In this document: one piece after another, positions 32,909 through 58,910 of the stretch
How the letters are laid out: each line of letters starts with the position of its first letter
Numbering within the stretch: the first letter of the stretch is position 1
Assembly (NCBI GenBank): GCA_964435435.1
Contig: CAYSZJ010000002.1
Coordinates: 7,468 to 71,467 of the forward strand
Direction of reading: 5' to 3'
DNA length: 64,000 nt
From: an uncultured archaeon
Lineage (GTDB): Archaea; Asgardarchaeota; Lokiarchaeia; Sigyniarchaeales; SOKP01
Translations under genes and position numbers: made by a program
Notes under the pieces: model-generated
The model's input: the letters and a program-made list of their open reading frames with translations, nothing else
What the model was told of the DNA's origin: nothing
Database searches by the model: none

Positions 32909-35623
32909 TTAATTATGGGTTAGATATTCGTGAATGGCTTTAGAAGCTCTTTTTCCCGCACCCATGGCAGATATGACAGTAGCACTTCCAGTTACAATAT
33001 CTCCTCCAGCAAATACACCTTCTAAATTCGTTTTACCATTTTCATTAGTTTCGATATAACCCCATTTATTAAGCTTTAAATCTGGGATAGATTTTGTTAT
33101 AATCGGATTTGCTCTAGTACCAATCGCTATAATAATTGTATCTGTATCTATTAAATATTCTGAATTTTCAATTGGAATTGGTCTTCGTCGTCCTGAATTA
33201 TCGGGCTCTCCCAATCTCATTTTTATAACTTCCATTTGCTTAATATTATCATTTTCATCTCCTATAAACCTTACTGGATTAGTTAAAAATTGAAATTCAA
33301 TGCCTTCTTCTAATGCATGATGATATTCTTCTCTCCTTGCGGGCATCTCTACTTCTGATCTTCTATAAACAACAATTACTCTTTTTGCGCCTAATCTTAG
33401 GGCTACGCGAGCGGAATCCATTGTAACATTACCTCCTCCGAGAACTGTAACAATTTCACCTATTTTAATTGGAGTATCATATTCGGGAAATTTATAAGCT
33501 TTCATTAAATTTGACCTGGTGAGGAATTCATTTGCAGTTAAAACGCCATTCAAGGTTAATCCGGGTACTTTAATGAATATAGGAAGTCCCGCTCCAACTC
33601 CAATAAATATCGCTTTATATCCCATATCTTTCAAATCTTCTTTATTTAGCGTTTTCCCTATAATTGTATTATAGTTAATATCAACATTTATCATTTTTAA
33701 AGTCTCAATTTCGTCTTTTACGATTTCTTTTGGTAATCTAAATTCTGGTATACCATAAATTAATACACCTCCACCAGCATGGAATGCTTCAAATATGGAA
33801 ACCTCATAACCCTCTCTCGCAAGTTCCCCAGCACAAGTTAAACCTGATGGTCCTGAGCCAATAATTGCGACCTTAATATGATTTGGAGCTTTACATTCGG
33901 GACATTCTTTAAGCTTATTTTTTGTTTCCCAATCAGCAATAAATCTTTCTAAATAACCAATAGCTATGGGTTTTCCAACCGAGCCTAATAAACATTTACT
34001 CTCGCATTGAACTTCTTGTGGACACACTCTTCCGCAGATGGCGGGTAATAGATTATAATCTTTCATGAGATGAATGGCCTCTAAGAATTTCTCTGTTTTT
34101 AATAATTTTATAAATTGAGGGATATTCACATTTACGGGGCAACCTGTAACACAGAGAGGGTTTCCACATTGTAAACATCTTTGAGTTTCTAATTTTACCA
34201 TTTCTAATGATAGTCCTTTAGGAACCTCTTGAAAGTTGGTTATTCTTATTTTTGGCTCTTGCTCAATCATCTTTTGTCTAGGTATCTCTTTGTACAATTT
34301 TTCTTTAGACTTTGCTATTCTACTCAAAGATATAAAACTTTTACTGTCTTCTTTAATATCCTTAATCTCGATTAATTTTTGACTTAAAGTTTCTTGTAAT
34401 AAATTGGTTCCTTTCTTAGTTCTTACTATAACCGTGGACCACCCAGATTCAGAGCCAATTGAACCTACTGAAATATCAGATAATTCTGAGGTTAAATCAT
34501 CACATAAAAAACAACCAAATCGAGCATATTTTTTTACATTTTTTATTGGAATATTAAAAGAATCTCCCTTTTTATCGTGAATATAAAAGCGTCCTTTGTT
34601 AATATCCATTTTTTTAATCTGTTCTGGAGTTTTTTGGAACTCGCTCTTTAAAATACCAATAATATTTTCGTAATCAAAAGATTCCATACAAAATAATCCA
34701 ATTTTTAATGTTATATTGTCGTAAAAAGGTCTATTTAGAGGATAAAATGAAATTTTTTTCAGAGCATTGAGAGTACAAGGTGTTCCTACAATTGCAATTT
34801 TTTTATATTTTTTAGAGTTTTGGAGAATTTTTAGCACGTGAGCATTACTATATTTTGTTCCAGTGCTTTTTAGTAAATCTGCTTCATTTTCAACCAATGA
34901 AGGTAATGGTTCGAGTGGTTTCTCCGATTCTTCAACAACCAGAGCAGCATCAATTAATTTTTGATTGAATGCTGTTTTAAGAAGGGTTGTAATAATACCT
35001 CCATCTTGAGCCCTTTCTTTAATATGATCTTCTTTTGTTTGTGCTGTATAAATATTCTTAAAATAATTAAATTCTTTTATATATTTAGTATCAGCATCGA
35101 TTATTTGCTGATTCTTTTCTAATTCTTTCGGAAAAAACGACCTAGGGCAACACGCATAGCATAATCCACAGTTAAAACATGACTCTTCATTTATTGTTAA
35201 AATATCGTTTATAAAACTTATTGCATTTATTGGACAGATTGAAACACATAATCCACAACCAGAACAAATATTCTTATCACGGATTACAGAAACATCAGGA
35301 AATAATCCTTCTTTTTCATTTTTTTTTTGTATGCTTTGATAAAATTCTGATTTTTCTCGTATAACCTCTAATAAACCCAATTCTTTTAAGTATTCTATAT
35401 TTAAAATCAAATTTTCCTCTGAAATCTCAAATTCTTTTTTTAATTTCTCAATATTTAATTCTCCCATTTCCTTTATCTTGTTAAAAATAATTTGTCTTTG
35501 ATTTTCAGCATGCCTCAAAGAATCAATGAAATTTTCAAATTCTATTTCGTTGTATTTTTCAGCTTTTAGAATTTTATCTTTATTATTAAGTAAAACTTCA
35601 ATTAAAGGTGTTTGTTGTTCCAT
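32909..35623 (-). CDS. four-module fusion: wHTH-like domain, 2x[4Fe-4S] ferredoxin, FrhB-like domain, NfnB/GltD-like NADPH oxidoreductase
   Basis: 904-aa ORF. N-terminus EFEISEENLILNIEYLKELGLLEV. Fe-S motifs CSGCGLCVSICP and CFNCGLCYACCP. FrhB signatures AQDGGIITTLL, VGTPCTLNA and SDISVGSIGS. GltD part CLQCGNPLCVTGCPV, ICGRVCP and IIGSGPSGLTCAGELA. Confidence 0.8.
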   Translation of the reverse strand: MEQQTPLIEVLLNNKDKILKAEKYNEIEFENFIDSLRHAENQRQIIFNKIKEMGELNIEKLKKEFEISEENLILNIEYLKELGLLEVIREKSEFYQSIQKKNEKEGLFPDVSVIRDKNICSGCGLCVSICPINAISFINDILTINEESCFNCGLCYACCPRSFFPKELEKNQQIIDADTKYIKEFNYFKNIYTAQTKEDHIKERAQDGGIITTLLKTAFNQKLIDAALVVEESEKPLEPLPSLVENEADLLKSTGTKYSNAHVLKILQNSKKYKKIAIVGTPCTLNALKKISFYPLNRPFYDNITLKIGLFCMESFDYENIIGILKSEFQKTPEQIKKMDINKGRFYIHDKKGDSFNIPIKNVKKYARFGCFLCDDLTSELSDISVGSIGSESGWSTVIVRTKKGTNLLQETLSQKLIEIKDIKEDSKSFISLSRIAKSKEKLYKEIPRQKMIEQEPKIRITNFQEVPKGLSLEMVKLETQRCLQCGNPLCVTGCPVNVNIPQFIKLLKTEKFLEAIHLMKDYNLLPAICGRVCPQEVQCESKCLLGSVGKPIAIGYLERFIADWETKNKLKECPECKAPNHIKVAIIGSGPSGLTCAGELAREGYEVSIFEAFHAGGGVLIYGIPEFRLPKEIVKDEIETLKMINVDINYNTIIGKTLNKEDLKDMGYKAIFIGVGAGLPIFIKVPGLTLNGVLTANEFLTRSNLMKAYKFPEYDTPIKIGEIVTVLGGGNVTMDSARVALRLGAKRVIVVYRRSEVEMPARREEYHHALEEGIEFQFLTNPVRFIGDENDNIKQMEVIKMRLGEPDNSGRRRPIPIENSEYLIDTDTIIIAIGTRANPIITKSIPDLKLNKWGYIETNENGKTNLEGVFAGGDIVTGSATVISAMGAGKRASKAIHEYLTHN

Positions 35624-50009: not shown

Positions 50010-52559
50010 TTGGACGTATATTCTATTTTGTCTCACCCCTTTAGAAGGAAGATTTTGTTGCTTTTAGAAAAAGCAGGCTATATTCCGTATACAGAATTAA
50101 TGGAAAAACTTGGTTTAGAAACAACTGGACAATTAAATTTTCATCTCAAAAAAATTGGTTCCCTTATTGATAAAGACAAAAAATCTTATTTTCTTACGGA
50201 AGATGGAAAACGTATACTTAAAATACTCAACCTTAATAAAAGAATTCTTTCTGGAGAAGATATTGATGACTATTTAGAATCGAAGGGGAGCGAAATAAGC
50301 AGAATAGGAGTTATAATTTGCAATTGCAATACAGAAATTTCGAGAGTAATTAATATTATATCTCTCGAAAATTATGTAAAAAAATTAAAAAATGTTGTTT
50401 CAATTAGAGTTTTCGAAAATTTATGTCAACAAAAAAATTTTACTAAAATTACAAATTGGGTTAAAGATAATTTTTTGAATAAAATTGTGATAGCAGGATG
50501 TTCTCCTAGAACGCATCAACTTCTGTTTGAACGAATTTTTGATGAGGTTATTGATCGACCAAATATAGAAATAGCAAATATTAGAGAACAATGTTGTTGG
50601 GTACATGAATTTAAAGAAAAAAATATTGAGCCCTTAATTTCTTTAGAAAAAGCTAAACTATTGATTGAAGCTGCTGTTGAGCGGGTAAACCTACAAAAGA
50701 AAGTAAAAATTAAGAGAGTTGAAGTAGAAAAGAGCTGTGCTATCTTAGGTGGGGGAATCTCAGGTATGACACTTGCTTTAAATTTGGCTCGAGCAGATAT
50801 TAAAGTGTATCTCATCGAAAAATCACCCACATTAGGAGGTAAGGTTGCTAGATGGCATCGTGTCCATCAAATGGGTGATTGTTCTATTTGTTTTATTTCG
50901 GAATTAATAAGTGAATTAGTGAAAGAAAAAAATATTGAAATCCTTACAAGCACCGAAGTTGAAAATGTATCAGGAGAGGTTGGTGAATTTAGTATTGATT
51001 TGATAAAGAAACCTCGGTTTGTAGATACTAAAAAATGTACTGGGTGTAAACAATGTATAGATGTATGTAGCATTGAAAAGTCAAATGAGTATGAGTGTGG
51101 GTTAACAAGTAGAAAAGTTATATATATTCCATTTATTCATTGCTATCCTTATGTCCCTTTAATTGATGAAGAAGATATAAAAAATTGTCTTAATTGTAGA
51201 ATTTGCGAACGGGCATGTGTCAATAAGGCAATAGATTTAACTCAAAAACATGAAAAAATTAAAGTTAAAGTCGGTGCAAAAGTTATTGCTATTGGTTCTG
51301 ATTTATATGATCATTTAGAGTCTTATCATTATAATCCATACAAAAATATTATAACTTCAGCTGAGTTTGAGCGGATATTATCTTCTGATGGGATTACTGA
51401 AGGAAAACTTCTTAGATTGTCTGATAAAAAGCCCATAAATTCGGTTTCTATTCTCCAAGAGATTGGTCCATCAAAATATCTTGCTGATTACTCTGAAATT
51501 TTGGCTGAAAAATATATTGAAGATATTAAAATAAAAAACCCTGATTGCGAAGTCAATATTTTTTACGATTTAGGTAAATTAAAAGAAAGGGATAAAGTTT
51601 TATTAAGATCAACTAACCCTGCATTTATATACGCAGATAAAATTACTATTGAATCTAATAAAGATGTGAATTATGTCATCGCTGATAGTATCGAATTTCC
51701 AAGTGATTTAATCGTATTAAATCTAAAATTTATCCCAAATAAAGATTTGAAAAGACTTCGAAAAGTTATGGATTTTACATTAGATGATAATGGATTTATG
51801 AGTGAAGAAACTCTAGCGTCTGGTATTTATGGTGTTGGAACGATTTTCGGTCCATTGGATTATAATTCCACTATTTCAACCGTTAATAATGTTGCATTAA
51901 AAATCATCTCATTACTCTTCCAAGATTATCTAATTGCAGAATTTACTGGCATAGAACTTGATGAAAGTAAATGTGGTCTATGCGGATTATGCTCACAAAT
52001 CTGCCCTTATAATGCTATTACACTAGAGTCTGAAAAAGTATGTATCGATAAATTTAAATGCAAGGGATGTGGGACTTGTGTTAGTATCTGTCCAACAAAT
52101 GCCATAGATCTCAATTTAGATACATCAGAAAAGATTCTTAAAACAATTGAAGTTTTTTCAAAATTTAATAGAAATCCAAAAATAATTGCTTTTTGTTGTC
52201 GTTCTTGTGGTTATGCTGCTGCTGATAATGCTGGTTTAAAAAAGATTTCATATTATCCTAATATTTTTATCATTCGAGTTCCTTGTACAGGAAGGATTGA
52301 CACTAATTTCATTATTAAATCATTTGAAATGGGATTTGATGGAGTAATGATAATTGGTTGCAGAAAAGAAGCATGCAGATATATTGATGGAATAGAAAAA
52401 ATCGAAAATAAAATTAAAATATTAAAAAATTTATTAGGAGTAAATTTTAGCAAACGAATTATTCTTGAACATATGAATGCTGTGGAGGGTAATAAGTTTG
52501 CTGAAATCGTAAATAGTTTTTATTTAGAATTATCAGAGGAGATTAAATTTGAAGTCTAA
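50010..52559 (+). CDS. ArsR-type wHTH - HdrA - MvhD triple fusion
   Basis: 849-aa ORF. N-terminus ILSHPFRRKILLLLEKAGYIPYTELMEKLGLETTGQLNFHLKKI. HdrA part IGVIICNCNTE, IAGCSPRTH, NIREQCCWVH, ILGGGISGMTLA, GDCSICF, CTGCKQCIDVC. C-terminus IIAFCCRSCGYAAADNAG..VPCTGRI..GVMIIGCRKEACRY (MvhD). Confidence 0.8.
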   Translation: MDVYSILSHPFRRKILLLLEKAGYIPYTELMEKLGLETTGQLNFHLKKIGSLIDKDKKSYFLTEDGKRILKILNLNKRILSGEDIDDYLESKGSEISRIGVIICNCNTEISRVINIISLENYVKKLKNVVSIRVFENLCQQKNFTKITNWVKDNFLNKIVIAGCSPRTHQLLFERIFDEVIDRPNIEIANIREQCCWVHEFKEKNIEPLISLEKAKLLIEAAVERVNLQKKVKIKRVEVEKSCAILGGGISGMTLALNLARADIKVYLIEKSPTLGGKVARWHRVHQMGDCSICFISELISELVKEKNIEILTSTEVENVSGEVGEFSIDLIKKPRFVDTKKCTGCKQCIDVCSIEKSNEYECGLTSRKVIYIPFIHCYPYVPLIDEEDIKNCLNCRICERACVNKAIDLTQKHEKIKVKVGAKVIAIGSDLYDHLESYHYNPYKNIITSAEFERILSSDGITEGKLLRLSDKKPINSVSILQEIGPSKYLADYSEILAEKYIEDIKIKNPDCEVNIFYDLGKLKERDKVLLRSTNPAFIYADKITIESNKDVNYVIADSIEFPSDLIVLNLKFIPNKDLKRLRKVMDFTLDDNGFMSEETLASGIYGVGTIFGPLDYNSTISTVNNVALKIISLLFQDYLIAEFTGIELDESKCGLCGLCSQICPYNAITLESEKVCIDKFKCKGCGTCVSICPTNAIDLNLDTSEKILKTIEVFSKFNRNPKIIAFCCRSCGYAAADNAGLKKISYYPNIFIIRVPCTGRIDTNFIIKSFEMGFDGVMIIGCRKEACRYIDGIEKIENKIKILKNLLGVNFSKRIILEHMNAVEGNKFAEIVNSFYLELSEEIKFEV

Positions 52560-54820: not shown

Positions 54821-56257
54821 ATGACAACTAGAAAGATATTAAGTGATTATTTTCAATGTGATATTTCAGAATTTGGATTCCAAGACTTATATGATTTAGT
54901 CATAAGTAAAAATATTTGCGTTCTTTGTGGAACTTGTATGTTAATTTGTCCCCGCATTGGTATGACTAAGAATCAACCTTCACTTTTGGATTATGATCCA
55001 GAATGTTCCTTATGTTTCAAATACTGTGCAAAAACATACTTTCCAGAGAAATTCTTTGAGAAGGAAATTTTTAATAATCAAATCCCAAAAGATCCCTTAA
55101 TAGGATATTATCAAAAAACTACTGTGGCTAAAAGTACTGATGATATTATTTTAAAACAAGCTCAAAATGGTGGAATAGTTACTACTTTACTTATTCACGC
55201 TCTGAATAATAAATTAATTGATGGAGTTCTACTTACAGGTAGAGATGAAAATTGGATTCCAAAACCGATTATTGCTAGAACTCCAAAAGAAATTTTAGAT
55301 GCAACAGGATCGATATATGCTTTATCTCCTAGTCTAATAACTTATAAAGATGCTGTGTATAAATATAAATTAAAACGGCTTGCATTTGTTGGTATGCCAT
55401 GCCAAATTCAAGCAGTAAGAAAACTTCAGTTTTTTCCTCCCCTCTCAGATAAATTTGGAAAATTTACACTTATAATTGGTCTTTTTTGTACTTCAAATTA
55501 TTCTTATGATTCAATGAAAGAAATTATTCAGAAAGAAATAAAAGTGCCTATAACTAAGGTAAAGAAACTTGATATAGCACAGGGTAAATTTATTGTTTAC
55601 ACAAAAGATGGACTGGTTAAAGAAATTCCCTTAAAAAAAGTTAAAAAATATAATTGGCCTAGTTGCCAATTCTGTAAAGATTATACTGCTGAATTTTCAG
55701 ACATATCTGTAGGAAGTGTTGGCGCTCCTGAAAATGGCTGGAATAGTGTAATTATTCGTTCTGATGTTGGTAGGAAAATATTTAATGATACTTTAGCTTC
55801 TAAGAAAATTAAAGTTGACGATCAAATAGATCTTGAAAAAATTAAGAATGATTCTTTAAGGAAGAAATCAAAAGTAATACAGATTGATGAAAAAATCTTA
55901 TCAGCAATGCGTTTATTTAATGTTTCTAAACTTGAGGGAAAAACTTTTACAACTCTTCTTTCTTTGGAGCATGCTGATTTGTCTATGTTGAGTGCAGTGA
56001 TGAACAGAGAACAACATGAGATTGTTAATGCTCTTGAAATGTTACAAAAGAGAAATTGGATATTTTCAACTAATGAATTTTATAAGCCATATAATCCAGT
56101 CAAGATATTTAAAGAAGAAATATACCAGTTAAAGAAAAGGCTTTATAATGACATAGATAATTTTAAATCAGAGGCATTAAAAGAGTTAAAAACAATTTAT
56201 TTCCAAAATAATCTCAAAGATGTAAAAGATATGGAATTTATTGATATTTTATTCTAA
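54821..56257 (+). CDS. FrhB/FdhB-family protein with a C-terminal TrmB-like wHTH and coiled-coil extension
   Basis: CVLCGTCMLICP, AQNGGIVTTLL, VGMPCQIQA and SDISVGSVGAP. The C-terminal roughly 130 aa include MRLFNVSKLEGKTFTTLLSLEHADLSMLSAVMNREQHEIVNALEMLQKRNWI. Confidence 0.75.
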   Translation: MTTRKILSDYFQCDISEFGFQDLYDLVISKNICVLCGTCMLICPRIGMTKNQPSLLDYDPECSLCFKYCAKTYFPEKFFEKEIFNNQIPKDPLIGYYQKTTVAKSTDDIILKQAQNGGIVTTLLIHALNNKLIDGVLLTGRDENWIPKPIIARTPKEILDATGSIYALSPSLITYKDAVYKYKLKRLAFVGMPCQIQAVRKLQFFPPLSDKFGKFTLIIGLFCTSNYSYDSMKEIIQKEIKVPITKVKKLDIAQGKFIVYTKDGLVKEIPLKKVKKYNWPSCQFCKDYTAEFSDISVGSVGAPENGWNSVIIRSDVGRKIFNDTLASKKIKVDDQIDLEKIKNDSLRKKSKVIQIDEKILSAMRLFNVSKLEGKTFTTLLSLEHADLSMLSAVMNREQHEIVNALEMLQKRNWIFSTNEFYKPYNPVKIFKEEIYQLKKRLYNDIDNFKSEALKELKTIYFQNNLKDVKDMEFIDILF

Positions 56258-56369
56258 ACGATGAAAATAATTCAAATAAATTATGAGTGAGACTCCGAAT
56301 AACTAAATAATTATAAAAATTAACCTATTAACTTCTTTTTAACATCAATAATTTTTATTAATCAACTAA

Positions 56370-56555
56370 AAAAGAGAATAAATCCTCAATTAATTATTCC
56401 ATCCATTAAAAAAAACATTACCTATTTCAAGAAGGGACATTTGTAAAGAATATTTCCAATTAATCTCCTTAGTTATTAAAAATATTGTTATAAAAATGAG
56501 ATAAAAAGTATTGTTAATAAACTAAAAACAATCATTAGTGTCTTTCATTGTCATT
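56370..56555 (-). pseudogene. orphan, decayed 3'-terminal fragment of a feoB gene
   Basis: Roughly three-quarters nucleotide identity by eye to the 3' end of intact feoB (59013-59196). The minus strand reads ..LMIVFSLLTILFISFL* and, after a frame change, ITIFLITKEINWKYSLQMSLLEIGNVFFNGWNN*. Intact feoB reads QMIVFSLVTMLYIPCFATIVLIAKETNWKYALQIAILEIGMALLIGGIINW. Confidence 0.7.
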
Positions 56556-56646
56556 TTTTAACATTCATTTGTCTTATTCTTTATAGTCTTATCAGTTTTA
56601 ATCATAATATTATTGAATATAGTATAAAATATATACGAATATAAAT

Positions 56647-56671
56647 ATATAAATGATCTATTTGCATATAT
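56647..56671. repeat. 25-nt motif ATATAAATGATCTATTTGCATATAT, inverted partner of 54706-54730
   Basis: It lies 84 nt upstream of ATG 56755. See 54706-54730. Confidence 0.7.
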
Positions 56672-56754
56672 TATCATAGGGAAAACAACATATAAAATAT
56701 TAAAATTGAATATTGAAACCTAAAACTTGGTGATTTATAATAAAATATAATTTT

Positions 56755-58638
56755 ATGATAATTTCGAGTGCAGGATGTAAATATGATGAATCACATCTCA
56801 TAAATACAAAGAAATTCAAAGAAGATGATTCCGTCAAAATTAGTAAGTTGGAAAATTTAGGAACACTTGATATAACACAGTTATTAGAGGCAATTTATAT
56901 GGGTTTTGATGGTATTTTTGTTATAATTAAAGGGATATTAAAAGGAGATAAGTTTATATCAGAATACAATTCATTTAATAGGCCAATAATTGAGGCTAAT
57001 CGAATATTAAATAAGAGAGGTTTAGGTAATCAAAGAATTAGGTTATTTAAGTTAAATAGAATAAATAATAAGGATTTAATTGAATCCTTTAGGGCTTTTT
57101 TTAAAGAAATAGTTCGATCTGGACCAAATCCAATTAATACAGATAATCAAAAAATATATAGAGATACAAAGGATGGTTATAACTTTAAAGATATTTCTAT
57201 AAAAAAACTGTTATATGCAACATATAAGGCTTCATACAATTTTCAATACAGATCACTGTTTAAAGCAAAGGAAAATATTTTAAATTCAGGAAAATATAAT
57301 GAAAATGAATTTATAGGTTTTCTGGATTCGATTTTCGAAGCTGAAACTGCTAGGAAATACATTTTTGAAGAATTAAAAAGATATAAACCATTTACATTAG
57401 AAGAAATAATAAATCTTTTTGATTTTTCAGAAGAGAATATAATTCGAGACATTTTTTACTTAAAAGAACAAGGATATATTGAAGAAATTTTTGAGGAATT
57501 ACCAGATATTGAATTAAATCATAATAATTCATTAGAATTTAAAAAATATTGTTATAAATATAGAATTAAAGAAATTAGGGAAAGTTATGGAGAGAATTAC
57601 TTCAAATCAGTTTTTATCATTCATGACAATAAAGTTTGTTGTCATTGCGGCTTATGTACATCAATATGTCCAGTAGATTGCATCGAACTTACGACAGATT
57701 ATGTATATATTGATGATGGAAAATGCATTAACTGTGGTCTTTGTTATAGTATATGTCCACAATCTTTTTCAATCGATAATCTACAAAACCTCATTAAAAA
57801 GTCTGATAGTTCTTTAAAATATTCTCAAGGATTAGGTTATTATAAAGATATTTTTTCGGCAAGAACATTAAAATATTCAATTAAAAAAGTAGGGCAAGAT
57901 GGAGGTATAGTAACTTCATTACTTCATTATTTATTTGACAAAAATTTAATAGATGCTGTAGTAACAATTAAACATTCAAAAAAATATTGGAAACCTAAAG
58001 TTAGCATAATAGAAAAAGTAGAAGACCTCTATAAAACAGCAGGTTCTACATATGTTCACGCTCCAATTTTATCAGTTTTAGATAAGATAAAAAAATATAA
58101 AAGAGTAGCTATAGTTGCACTTCCATGTAAAATAAAAGCACTATTTAAAGGAGAACTATTTCCTGTAAAAATACCTTTATTAAACAATATAAAATATAAA
58201 ATAGGTCTTTTTTGTAAACAATCCTTTACTTATGAGAAAATCCTTAAACTTTTTAGTGATAAATTCAGTGTAAATATTGACGAAATAGCTAAGATGGATA
58301 TAAACAGAGGAAAATTTGTTATAACTCTTGAATCTGGTGATATATTTTCACATCCATTAAAGGAATGCGATTTATATGGTTCTGATTTTTGTAATTATTG
58401 CAATGATTTTACAGCAGAATTAGCAGATATTTCAGTAGGGTCGATTGGTTCAAAAATAGGATGGTCTTCTGTTATTATCAGGACAAAAAAAGGGGAGGTA
58501 ATTTTTAATGATGCTATCAAACATGGCATAATTAAAACTAAAAGTTTGATAGATAAAAAACCTCTTCAGTTAAATATAGAAAAGCTAGCAGAGATAAAAA
58601 GAGATACTTCTAGACCTATTCAATTAAATATTATTTAA
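56755..58638 (+). CDS. fusion: Cys-depleted MvhD-like domain, wHTH-like domain, 2x[4Fe-4S] ferredoxin, FrhB-like domain
   Basis: 627-aa ORF. N-terminus MIISSAGCKYDES..MGFDGIFVIIKGILKGDKF aligns to MvhD with the Cys ligands lost. Then LFDFSEENIIRDIFYLKEQGYIEEI, CCHCGLCTSICP and CINCGLCYSICP. FrhB signatures GQDGGIVTSLL, ALPCKIKA and ADISVGSIGS. Confidence 0.75.
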   Translation: MIISSAGCKYDESHLINTKKFKEDDSVKISKLENLGTLDITQLLEAIYMGFDGIFVIIKGILKGDKFISEYNSFNRPIIEANRILNKRGLGNQRIRLFKLNRINNKDLIESFRAFFKEIVRSGPNPINTDNQKIYRDTKDGYNFKDISIKKLLYATYKASYNFQYRSLFKAKENILNSGKYNENEFIGFLDSIFEAETARKYIFEELKRYKPFTLEEIINLFDFSEENIIRDIFYLKEQGYIEEIFEELPDIELNHNNSLEFKKYCYKYRIKEIRESYGENYFKSVFIIHDNKVCCHCGLCTSICPVDCIELTTDYVYIDDGKCINCGLCYSICPQSFSIDNLQNLIKKSDSSLKYSQGLGYYKDIFSARTLKYSIKKVGQDGGIVTSLLHYLFDKNLIDAVVTIKHSKKYWKPKVSIIEKVEDLYKTAGSTYVHAPILSVLDKIKKYKRVAIVALPCKIKALFKGELFPVKIPLLNNIKYKIGLFCKQSFTYEKILKLFSDKFSVNIDEIAKMDINRGKFVITLESGDIFSHPLKECDLYGSDFCNYCNDFTAELADISVGSIGSKIGWSSVIIRTKKGEVIFNDAIKHGIIKTKSLIDKKPLQLNIEKLAEIKRDTSRPIQLNII

Positions 58639-58658: not shown

Positions 58659-58910
58659 ATGACAAATGAGAACATAAAAAATAAGATAAAATATAAAAGG
58701 CAAATTAAAAACCGTAATGGGCAATATGATGTAAATCCGGATATATTAAAGATGGAAATAGCTCCACCTGATTTTATTGATCTGCAGGAAAGTCTAAATA
58801 ATCATTCAAACAATTCTAAAATCGATTCTACATCTGTATCTAAAAGCATTTATAAAAACATTAATTTGGAAGCAAAAATAAAACGTAGAAAAAAAAGAGA
58901 AGGAGACTAA
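58659..58910 (+). CDS. low-complexity Lys/Asn-rich hypothetical ORF
   Basis: 83-aa ORF with no recognisable family. Its coding status is uncertain. Confidence 0.3.
   Translation: MTNENIKNKIKYKRQIKNRNGQYDVNPDILKMEIAPPDFIDLQESLNNHSNNSKIDSTSVSKSIYKNINLEAKIKRRKKREGD

Follow-up and report, generated by a model that had tools for sequence, protein, structure and literature searches.

Why should redox enzymes carry domains that resemble transcription factors? The question is raised by a 64,000-nucleotide stretch of DNA from an uncultured archaeon of the Asgard order Sigyniarchaeales (GenBank assembly GCA_964435435.1, contig CAYSZJ010000002.1, positions 7,468 to 71,467; hereafter the window), in which two FrhB proteins share a helix-turn-helix (HTH)-like segment. 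These proteins are P0002 (904 residues, encoded on the minus strand at 32909-35623) and P0001 (627 residues, encoded on the plus strand at 56755-58638). Our analysis identifies the segment as part of an Asgard-specific family of adaptor domains of the ArsR-like winged-helix type, whose relatives are found on the MvhD adaptor subunit and as a free protein in hdr operons. In P0001 and P0002, the evidence tilts towards a role in docking or structure within bifurcating complexes rather than in gene regulation.

The sequence-only reading had described the shared module as a stretch of 24 residues that recurs in two separate FrhB fusions. Both motifs sit where it placed them, EFEISEENLILNIEYLKELGLLEV at 35363-35434 on the minus strand (residues 64-87 of P0002) and LFDFSEENIIRDIFYLKEQGYIEEI at 57415-57489 on the plus strand (residues 221-245 of P0001), and 13 of 24 positions are common to both. 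The two segments are one module; BLASTP aligns P0001 168-615 with P0002 11-440 at 39% identity (E 1e-103). In both proteins the order of Pfam matches places this module directly ahead of a unit comprising a ferredoxin domain (Fd) and FrhB, ~50 residues before the first CxxCxxCxxxCP. Since the whole module-Fd-FrhB block is paralogous over 448 residues, however, the module did not recur independently in two fusions, and the 24-residue motif is merely its best-conserved stretch. The actual domain extends over ~110-130 residues and comprises a three-helix preamble followed by a winged helix-turn-helix (wHTH).

In P0002 the module occupies residues 1-112 (35288-35623; helical preamble and winged helix, aligning with P0001 168-247). 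A Pfam search finds no family above cut-off within these N-terminal ~112 residues, which are 52-98% identical among orthologues. They are followed on the same strand by a 2x[4Fe-4S] ferredoxin domain (residues 113-165, 35129-35287; Pfam Fer4 families, with CxxCxxCxxxCP from residue 120), then by FrhB_FdhB_N and FrhB_FdhB_C (residues 191-425, 34349-35053; Pfam E 4.5e-20 and 5.1e-43). The latter form an F420-type flavin/iron-sulfur oxidoreductase unit that matches the PDB sequences 8riu_B and 6qii_B at E ~1e-50. The C-terminal half is NfnB/GltD-like (residues 450-904 and the stop codon, 32909-34276; PDB 4ylf_B E 8.4e-171, 5jca_L E 5e-154; Pfam Fer4_20 and Pyr_redox_2). P0001 instead begins with a pseudo-MvhD domain devoid of cysteines (residues 1-122, 56755-57120; weak Pfam FlpD match at 6-119, E 3.6e-7), whereas P0002 and the commonest homologues, of ~498 residues, start with the module. 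Downstream of this degenerate FlpD domain, on the plus strand, lie the module (residues 149-271, 57199-57567; located by structural models, Foldseek and profile matches), a 2x[4Fe-4S] ferredoxin domain assigned by Pfam (residues 288-340, 57616-57774, the Pfam match spanning 288-337; invariant cysteines C295-C334 in an alignment termed A3) and the FrhB unit (residues 355-618, 57817-58608; Pfam FrhB_FdhB_N and FrhB_FdhB_C at 367-599). Foldseek neighbors of this unit are 8riu_B, FrhB and Fsr; the match of P0001 to 8riu_B has a template modeling (TM) score of 0.81 over ~355 columns, Fd domain included.

The fold of the module was modeled from an alignment of 51 non-redundant module pieces from homologues (A1, of which P0002 is row 2). 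AlphaFold2 (AF2) returned a predicted local distance difference test score (pLDDT) of 83.9, rising above 90 across the HTH, and a predicted TM score (pTM) of 0.73. After three short helices the elements follow the order H1-b-H2-H3-b-b (DSSP: H34-58, b64, H66-70, H77-89, E93-99, E116-122). The same elements are present in the model of full-length P0001, with preamble helices at 149-159, 163-170 and 172-178, wHTH helices at 183-207, 215-219 and 226-238, and strands at 242-248 and 265-271. In the register given by the AF2 secondary structure, the P0002 motif spans the end of H2, the recognition helix H3 and strand beta2; the P0001 motif likewise corresponds to the recognition helix and the first strand of the wing. 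The top 50 Foldseek matches in the PDB are almost all winged helices (TFE-alpha, Phr, MarR, ArsR, PadR, AspA), with probabilities of 0.94-1.0, yet E values of at least 0.02; Phr (2p4w) superposes with a root-mean-square deviation of 1.9 Å over 73 columns. Moreover, the A1 profile matches only winged-helix proteins in the PDB, led by PH1932/ArsR (2e-4) and AspA (5e-4), then Lrs14 and Lrp, down to 1e-2, and MarR. Single members of A1 show sub-threshold Pfam matches to HTH_DeoR (19/51) and HTH_11 (17/51), and stand-alone forms to HTH_5, but no Pfam HTH family exceeds its gathering score in the module pieces, save for a marginal HTH_DeoR match of the isolated P0001 piece (21.2 vs 21 bits). The module thus shares with ArsR/SmtB (HTH_5) and DeoR/HTH_11 factors its fold, an 'E..R' pattern in H1 and an 'h..L+..G' pattern in H3. 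Unlike those factors, it possesses a three-helix preamble and sits in redox enzymes and hdr operons.

The segments are therefore winged helices, as the sequence-only reading had supposed, and their conservation extends far outside the window genome, which sets them apart from generic linkers. Homologues of the module at E <=1e-10 were found in 130 of 400 genomes of the phylum, including 113 of the 134 in the family to which the window belongs; the few other families have weaker matches. Among 1.84 billion cluster representatives searched, only ~30 proteins matched at E <1e-10. The full-length matches are either FrhB proteins or short proteins, the latter probably fragments; the other strong matches are proteins with tandem wHTH repeats, and a weaker tail consists of generic wHTH proteins. 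The strongest profile matches outside the FrhB and MvhD families are P0113, P0116, P0117, P0121 and P0126, proteins of 490-730 residues with 7-9 tandem wHTH/HTH_11-like repeats.

The FrhB-fused homologues, whose source names are all Asgard (Promethearchaeota, Loki-, Hod-, Hermod- and Thorarchaeota), fall into three types. The commonest, of ~498 residues, comprises module and Fd-FrhB and features a long charged wing hairpin; those of ~625 residues have an MvhD-like domain, module and Fd-FrhB, as P0001; and those of ~905 residues have module, Fd-FrhB and NfnB, as P0002. The window genome (G000) holds four copies of the module: P0001, P0002, a 498-aa gene on contig C4, and a 915-aa FrhB-NfnB protein on contig C36, where it forms with a 288-aa NfnA a second nfnA/module-FrhB-NfnB pair (locus L002, 7566-11190). 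A tree of the module core resolves separate clades for the MvhD tails (98/91), the NfnB type (97/92), the stand-alone proteins (99/90) and the plain together with the pseudo-MvhD forms (99/97), the pseudo-MvhD type nesting among the short plain forms. Because this tree is unrooted and comprises 70 columns, it gives neither the order nor the direction of the fusions.

The MvhD relatives place the module in a second setting. P0250, the MvhD of the operon headed by the 498-aa gene, has a true length of 263 residues and consists of a complete FlpD domain and a tail of ~120 residues, whereas solved MvhD structures stop at GPSPIK (~140 residues) and have no winged-helix tail. Profile comparison with hhalign matches A1 to P0250 with a probability of 81% (E 1.2e-5), and to an alignment of 27 MvhD tails with 94.8% (E 5e-8, 91 columns), covering both preamble and wHTH. 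Long MvhDs form at least 141 clusters, of which all that carry a name are Asgard. When ten representative matches of ~250-270 aa were checked as further long MvhDs, two were genuine and the rest were generic RecG-C/wHTH regulators. Several long-MvhD matches in related genomes (for example G168:C152:9310-10116, G179:C10:6272-7069, G267:C41:12113-12910) contain a single in-frame TGA/TAG or lie in an open frame of >1200 aa; these may be selenocysteine MvhDs or HdrA-MvhD fusions.

P0001 has the appearance of a fusion between a long MvhD and Fd-FrhB, as its residues 8-250 are collinear with P0250 31-264 (BLASTP E 2e-7). Its N-terminal domain has the fold of classical MvhD (PF02662 FlpD; 5odc_D, 7bkb_F, 8rvu_F), matching the MvhD chains 5odh_D and 7bkb_F with a Foldseek probability of 1.0 and a TM score of 0.6, and it retains the GFDGIFV and GPNPI motifs. 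In solved complexes, classical MvhD connects HdrA with a hydrogenase module or one of the FdhB/FrhB type. P0001 and its 14 orthologues differ from it in having lost the conserved cysteine motifs CNWCSY, MCSGR and GCHxGDCHY (15/15), with zero or one cysteine left at these positions; P0250 and the 159-aa MvhD of the window keep them all. In MvhD these motifs bind the [2Fe-2S] cluster, and the MvhD part of P0001 is therefore structural and not an electron carrier.

Such decay, and the collinearity of P0001 with long MvhD, would suit a history in which the module was left over from the fusion of a long-MvhD gene with FrhB and now acts as no more than a spacer. We consider this highly improbable, and already disfavoured by the strong purifying selection on the module. 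In 54 sequences with overall identities as low as 45%, Y235, G240 and D232 are invariant (P0001 numbering, alignment A3), and eight more residues (R231, L236, K237, E238, Q239, Y241, E243 and E244) reach a conservation of 90% or more. Its retention in most genomes of the family and the confident model of its HTH likewise speak against a spacer. The conserved residues between R231 and E244 combine aromatic and charged side chains into a patch located on beta2 and the C-terminal end of H3, from which we infer a protein interface.

In its third setting the module stands alone. Among the weaker matches were proteins of ~114 residues that align with it in its entirety (hhalign 98.9%, E 2e-17, 104 columns). 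Two loci from Jordarchaeia, with proteins 72% identical to each other, have the gene for such a protein (~114-122 aa) between hdrB and hdrC (L034, 5977-6345; L038, 5980-6345), within a tightly packed operon on one strand with the order long-MvhD, HdrA-HdrA, MvhD, HdrC, HdrB, module, HdrC, HdrB. A domain that occurs free in hdr operons, on MvhD and on FrhB shows the pattern of gene fusions typical of proteins that belong to one complex. The 498-aa gene provides a further link to Hdr: in the window genome it heads an operon encoding module-FrhB, a second FrhB (393 aa), an HdrD-like CCG protein, HdrA-HdrA (1016 aa), MvhD and another HdrA-HdrA, and it is followed on the same strand, at a distance of 6-7 kb, by an MvhD gene in >20 genomes of the family.

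Does the module bind DNA or a partner? For P0001 and P0002, the alternative drawn by the sequence-only reading now leans towards partner or structural binding, as judged by charge, by the compactness of the P0001 model and by the precedent of BamF. None of the three FrhB-fused types has the basic or polar recognition helix and positive surface of a DNA-binding HTH. H3 carries a net charge of -2.5 to -2.9 in each of them, compared with +0.3 in the MvhD tails and +0.5 in the stand-alone forms; for the region from H1 to beta2 the value is -2.9 to -7.9 (the P0001 type at about -8), against +2.4 in MvhD tails, and generic wHTH proteins from the same profile search have a mean charge of about +3. 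Moreover, the acidic recognition helix of the fused forms differs from that of ArsR factors in that the histidine of H3 is replaced, by RD in the 498-aa and 625-aa types and by LN in P0002. The AF2 model of full-length P0001 is one compact body of four domains (pTM 0.85, pLDDT 83.6), with the module in mid-chain. Since Fd-FrhB accounts for ~54% of the chain, such a pTM requires that the pseudo-MvhD domain and the module be confidently placed as well.

A precedent for a wHTH acting as a protein interface comes from class II benzoyl-CoA reductase (BCRII) of Geobacter metallireducens, the sole case in the literature searched that connects MvhD with a wHTH (preprint, bioRxiv 10.64898/2026.04.10.717634). 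Its subunit BamF is an MvhD homologue >100 residues longer than usual, and in the cryo-electron microscopy structure the BamF wHTH interfaces with BamI of the BamGHI input module; BamE is a fused HdrA dimer, and an HdrD-like subunit is also present (bioRxiv 10.64898/2026.04.10.717634). The Asgard operons likewise encode a long MvhD, HdrA-HdrA proteins (1003-1037 aa) and an HdrD-like CCG protein. They differ in that the input module is F420-type FrhB as opposed to NuoEFG/HydBC-like, and in that the wHTH of the window proteins sits on this FrhB input module and not on a functional MvhD. Furthermore, BamF reportedly has two Rossmann-fold domains, unlike the Asgard long MvhD with its one FlpD domain and tail. 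The literature searched yielded no description of an Asgard FrhB or MvhD that bears a wHTH, nor of a cysteine-less pseudo-MvhD-FrhB or an FrhB-NfnB fusion.

These data suggest that the module may be a component of flavin-based electron-bifurcating systems of both the HdrA/MvhD and the Nfn type. It occurs in four forms: a free ~114-aa protein of hdr operons, the tail of long MvhD, the N-terminus of Fd-FrhB with or without NfnB, and a domain lying between pseudo-MvhD and Fd-FrhB. In P0001 and P0002 it most likely does not bind DNA but packs onto the enzyme body, and its conserved surface, RD..YLKEQGYIEE (NIEYLKELGLLE in the NfnB type), would keep the F420-reactive FrhB in place on either a second protomer or a partner subunit, for which HdrA-HdrA/MvhD, the neighboring FrhB paralogue and NfnA are candidates. 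Such a role would parallel that of the BamF wHTH towards BamI.

Several observations weigh against this docking role, and some of them favor a working DNA-binding domain, in which case the FrhB, MvhD and Hdr subunits would be 'trigger enzymes' that couple the redox state of F420, NADPH or ferredoxin to the expression of hdr, frh and nfn genes. An ArsR-like ancestry and structural neighbors that are all transcription factors fit this reading. The stand-alone homologues are annotated as ArsR regulators in their source records (Jordarchaeia/Freyarchaeota); they and the MvhD tails keep a basic HTH, as in ordinary wHTH regulators, and an ArsR-type 'xHLxxLRxxG(L)V' helix, so that DNA binding is plausible for both. 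When 13 diverged upstream regions were scanned for k-mers and inverted repeats, two elements emerged, TTATAA-N11-TTATAA and a AATGTCAAT block. The former, as (C)TTATAA-N11-TTATAA(G), lies at -86 to -116 upstream of the 498-aa gene in 12 of 28 loci (L004-L029; in G000 on contig C4, upstream of 44413), above shuffled controls, and could be an operator. Three further points concern the docking role itself. The BamF wHTH is likened to the Asgard tail and module by description, not by sequence; the MvhD of the 498-aa operon is tailed in only 4 of ~24 genomes and short in most; and P0002 stands beside NfnA with no adjacent Hdr genes. The tailed fraction also led us to reject, as a general model, a tail-to-tail pairing between the wHTHs of MvhD and FrhB encoded in the same operon.

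The upstream elements speak decisively neither for nor against DNA binding. Neither TTATAA-N11-TTATAA nor the AATGTCAAT block occurs upstream of P0001 or P0002, despite the near-identical H3 helices of P0001 and the 498-aa protein, and the TTATAA sequences may be no more than TATA boxes. A second conserved block, ATGAATGTCAATTTAA, lies ~340-400 nt upstream of the 498-aa gene in 11 of 28 loci. The conserved elements upstream of this gene could be read as an operator, a small RNA or a double TATA box. Considering also the acidic recognition helices, the replaced histidine, the mid-chain position in the compact P0001 model, and the use of the wHTH as a protein interface in BamF, the only solved comparable case, we regard it as unlikely that the module is a working DNA-binding domain.

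The compactness of P0001 would also suit an intramolecular cap, by which the module stabilizes or shields the clusters of Fd-FrhB, gates F420 or promotes homodimerization, contacting no other type of subunit. The high pTM indicates tight packing within its own chain, the spacing of ~50 residues to the first cluster motif is constant, the module has co-diverged with the FrhB body such that each architecture forms its own clade, and P0002 is paired with NfnA away from any Hdr genes. A cap does not account for the occurrence of the domain free in hdr operons and on the MvhD tail, where no Fd-FrhB is present on the chain. Moreover, many FrhB paralogues of the same operons do without the module (393 aa, 372 aa and P0003, described below), which is therefore not needed for the folding of Fd-FrhB. 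A purely intramolecular function thus appears quite improbable. The docking role, by comparison, might be extended to a portable connector that plugs interchangeable inputs (F420-FrhB, FrhB-NfnB, MvhD-hydrogenase) into HdrA-type cores, where the free form and those carried by MvhD or FrhB would compete for one site; in its most radical version the basic forms, once released, would bind DNA, so that complex assembly would control transcription of its own genes. We offer this extension as a speculation that is rather doubtful.

P0001 and P0002 are not the only redox proteins of the window with HTH-like domains; the sequence-only reading had counted four such enzymes in 26 kb. Counted by domains, this is correct, yet the domains are not of one kind. 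The third FrhB paralogue, P0003 (54821-56257, plus strand), had been credited with a TrmB-like C-terminus. The match is present (residues 366-428, 55916-56104) but falls below the Pfam cut-off (E 1.6e-4, 21.9 vs 25.6 bits); a similarly weak TrmB match is on record for 478-aa orthologues of P0003, and against the PDB the segment finds TrmBL2 weakly, at E 0.1. The fourth enzyme, described as an ArsR-HdrA fusion, holds up: an HdrA-MvhD fusion (open reading frame (ORF) 50010-52559) carries at its N-terminus an ArsR/DUF7347-type wHTH (residues 2-71, 50013-50222, plus strand) with a Pfam DUF7347 score of 40.4 bits, above cut-off. A common origin with the module was rejected, at the sensitivity of hhalign with A1, for both the P0003 C-terminus (probability 0.07%) and the HdrA N-terminal wHTH (0.6%). 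Three different winged helices are thus attached to redox subunits in the window, and only the module has relatives on MvhD and in hdr operons. The FrhB portions of the three proteins are alike, with FrhB_FdhB_N and FrhB_FdhB_C above the curated Pfam cut-off and a 2x[4Fe-4S] domain before them in P0001, P0002 and P0003.

Gene neighborhoods further inform the choice of partner. Genes of the P0001 type and of the 478-aa P0003 type are adjacent in three arrangements: in tandem in the window (54821-58638), divergent in L039 (8365-11872), and in reversed tandem in L040 (10001-13972) and L041 (515-4486). That adjacency persists through these arrangements suggests that the two FrhB paralogues work together, in a hetero-complex. 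Directly downstream of P0001 lies a Lys-rich ORF of 83 aa (58659-58910, plus strand), which is kept downstream of the 625-aa orthologues in L039, L040 and L041 at 36-43% identity, with a C-terminal AKIK.RKKREGD identical in L040; this ORF is a probable small gene, missed by annotation, that is linked to P0001-type FrhB. Genes of the P0002 type always follow an NfnA-like gene (window, L002, L042/L043). In the window this NfnA/PyrK-like small subunit gene lies directly upstream of P0002 (35625-36509, minus strand; Pfam DHODB_Fe-S_bind, FAD_binding_6, NAD_binding_1), and the next gene upstream is MtdA-like. A glutamate dehydrogenase gene (ELFV_dehydrog) is found by nfnA/frhB-nfnB in L042 (4539-5828) and L043 (4117-5406), and another near the P0001-type gene in L039 (15144-16472) and L040 (4308-5657), all from other Asgard genomes, a possible sign that these F420/NADPH modules are connected to the breakdown of amino acids. 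F420 itself is a plausible substrate, as the window genome encodes CofH, CofD and CofE above their NCBIfam cut-offs (462.8, 306.5 and 273.4 bits); cofH with a cofG-like neighbor, cofD and two cofE genes lie on contigs C98 (6906-9021), C66 (14187-16516) and C23 (29416-30114).

The Fd-FrhB unit has a close counterpart in the 'F420 reductase' subunits of Ca. Ethanoperedens thermophilum (8riu_B, 8rja_E; E ~1e-51 to 1e-45), which belong to carbon monoxide dehydrogenase and formylmethanofuran dehydrogenase complexes and plug F420 into them (PMC11493965). Those subunits comprise the same 2x[4Fe-4S]-FrhB unit in 350-370 residues and, unlike the window proteins, lack the module, the MvhD-like domain and the NfnB fusion (PMC11493965). 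P0002, for its part, resembles NfnAB (4ylf, 5jca) in its residues 450-904 and in the NfnA-like gene directly upstream, but has module, Fd and FrhB fused at the N-terminus of NfnB, an arrangement which suggests that F420 is used as a partner in place of ferredoxin or alongside it.

Among known organisms, Asgard archaea are the nearest kin of eukaryotes. The picture of their energy metabolism derives almost wholly from inventories of Hdr, Mvh, FrhB and Nfn paralogues. A domain common to the MvhD adaptor, the FrhB input modules and a small hdr-operon protein therefore provides a testable handle on which subunits are neighbors, and 'ArsR-type regulator' is not a safe default annotation for the wHTH-bearing genes of this family. 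If the module indeed docks these enzymes, the wHTH precedent set by BamF would gain a large archaeal counterpart. The FrhB-NfnB fusion, for its part, would link F420 to NADPH/NADH bifurcation.

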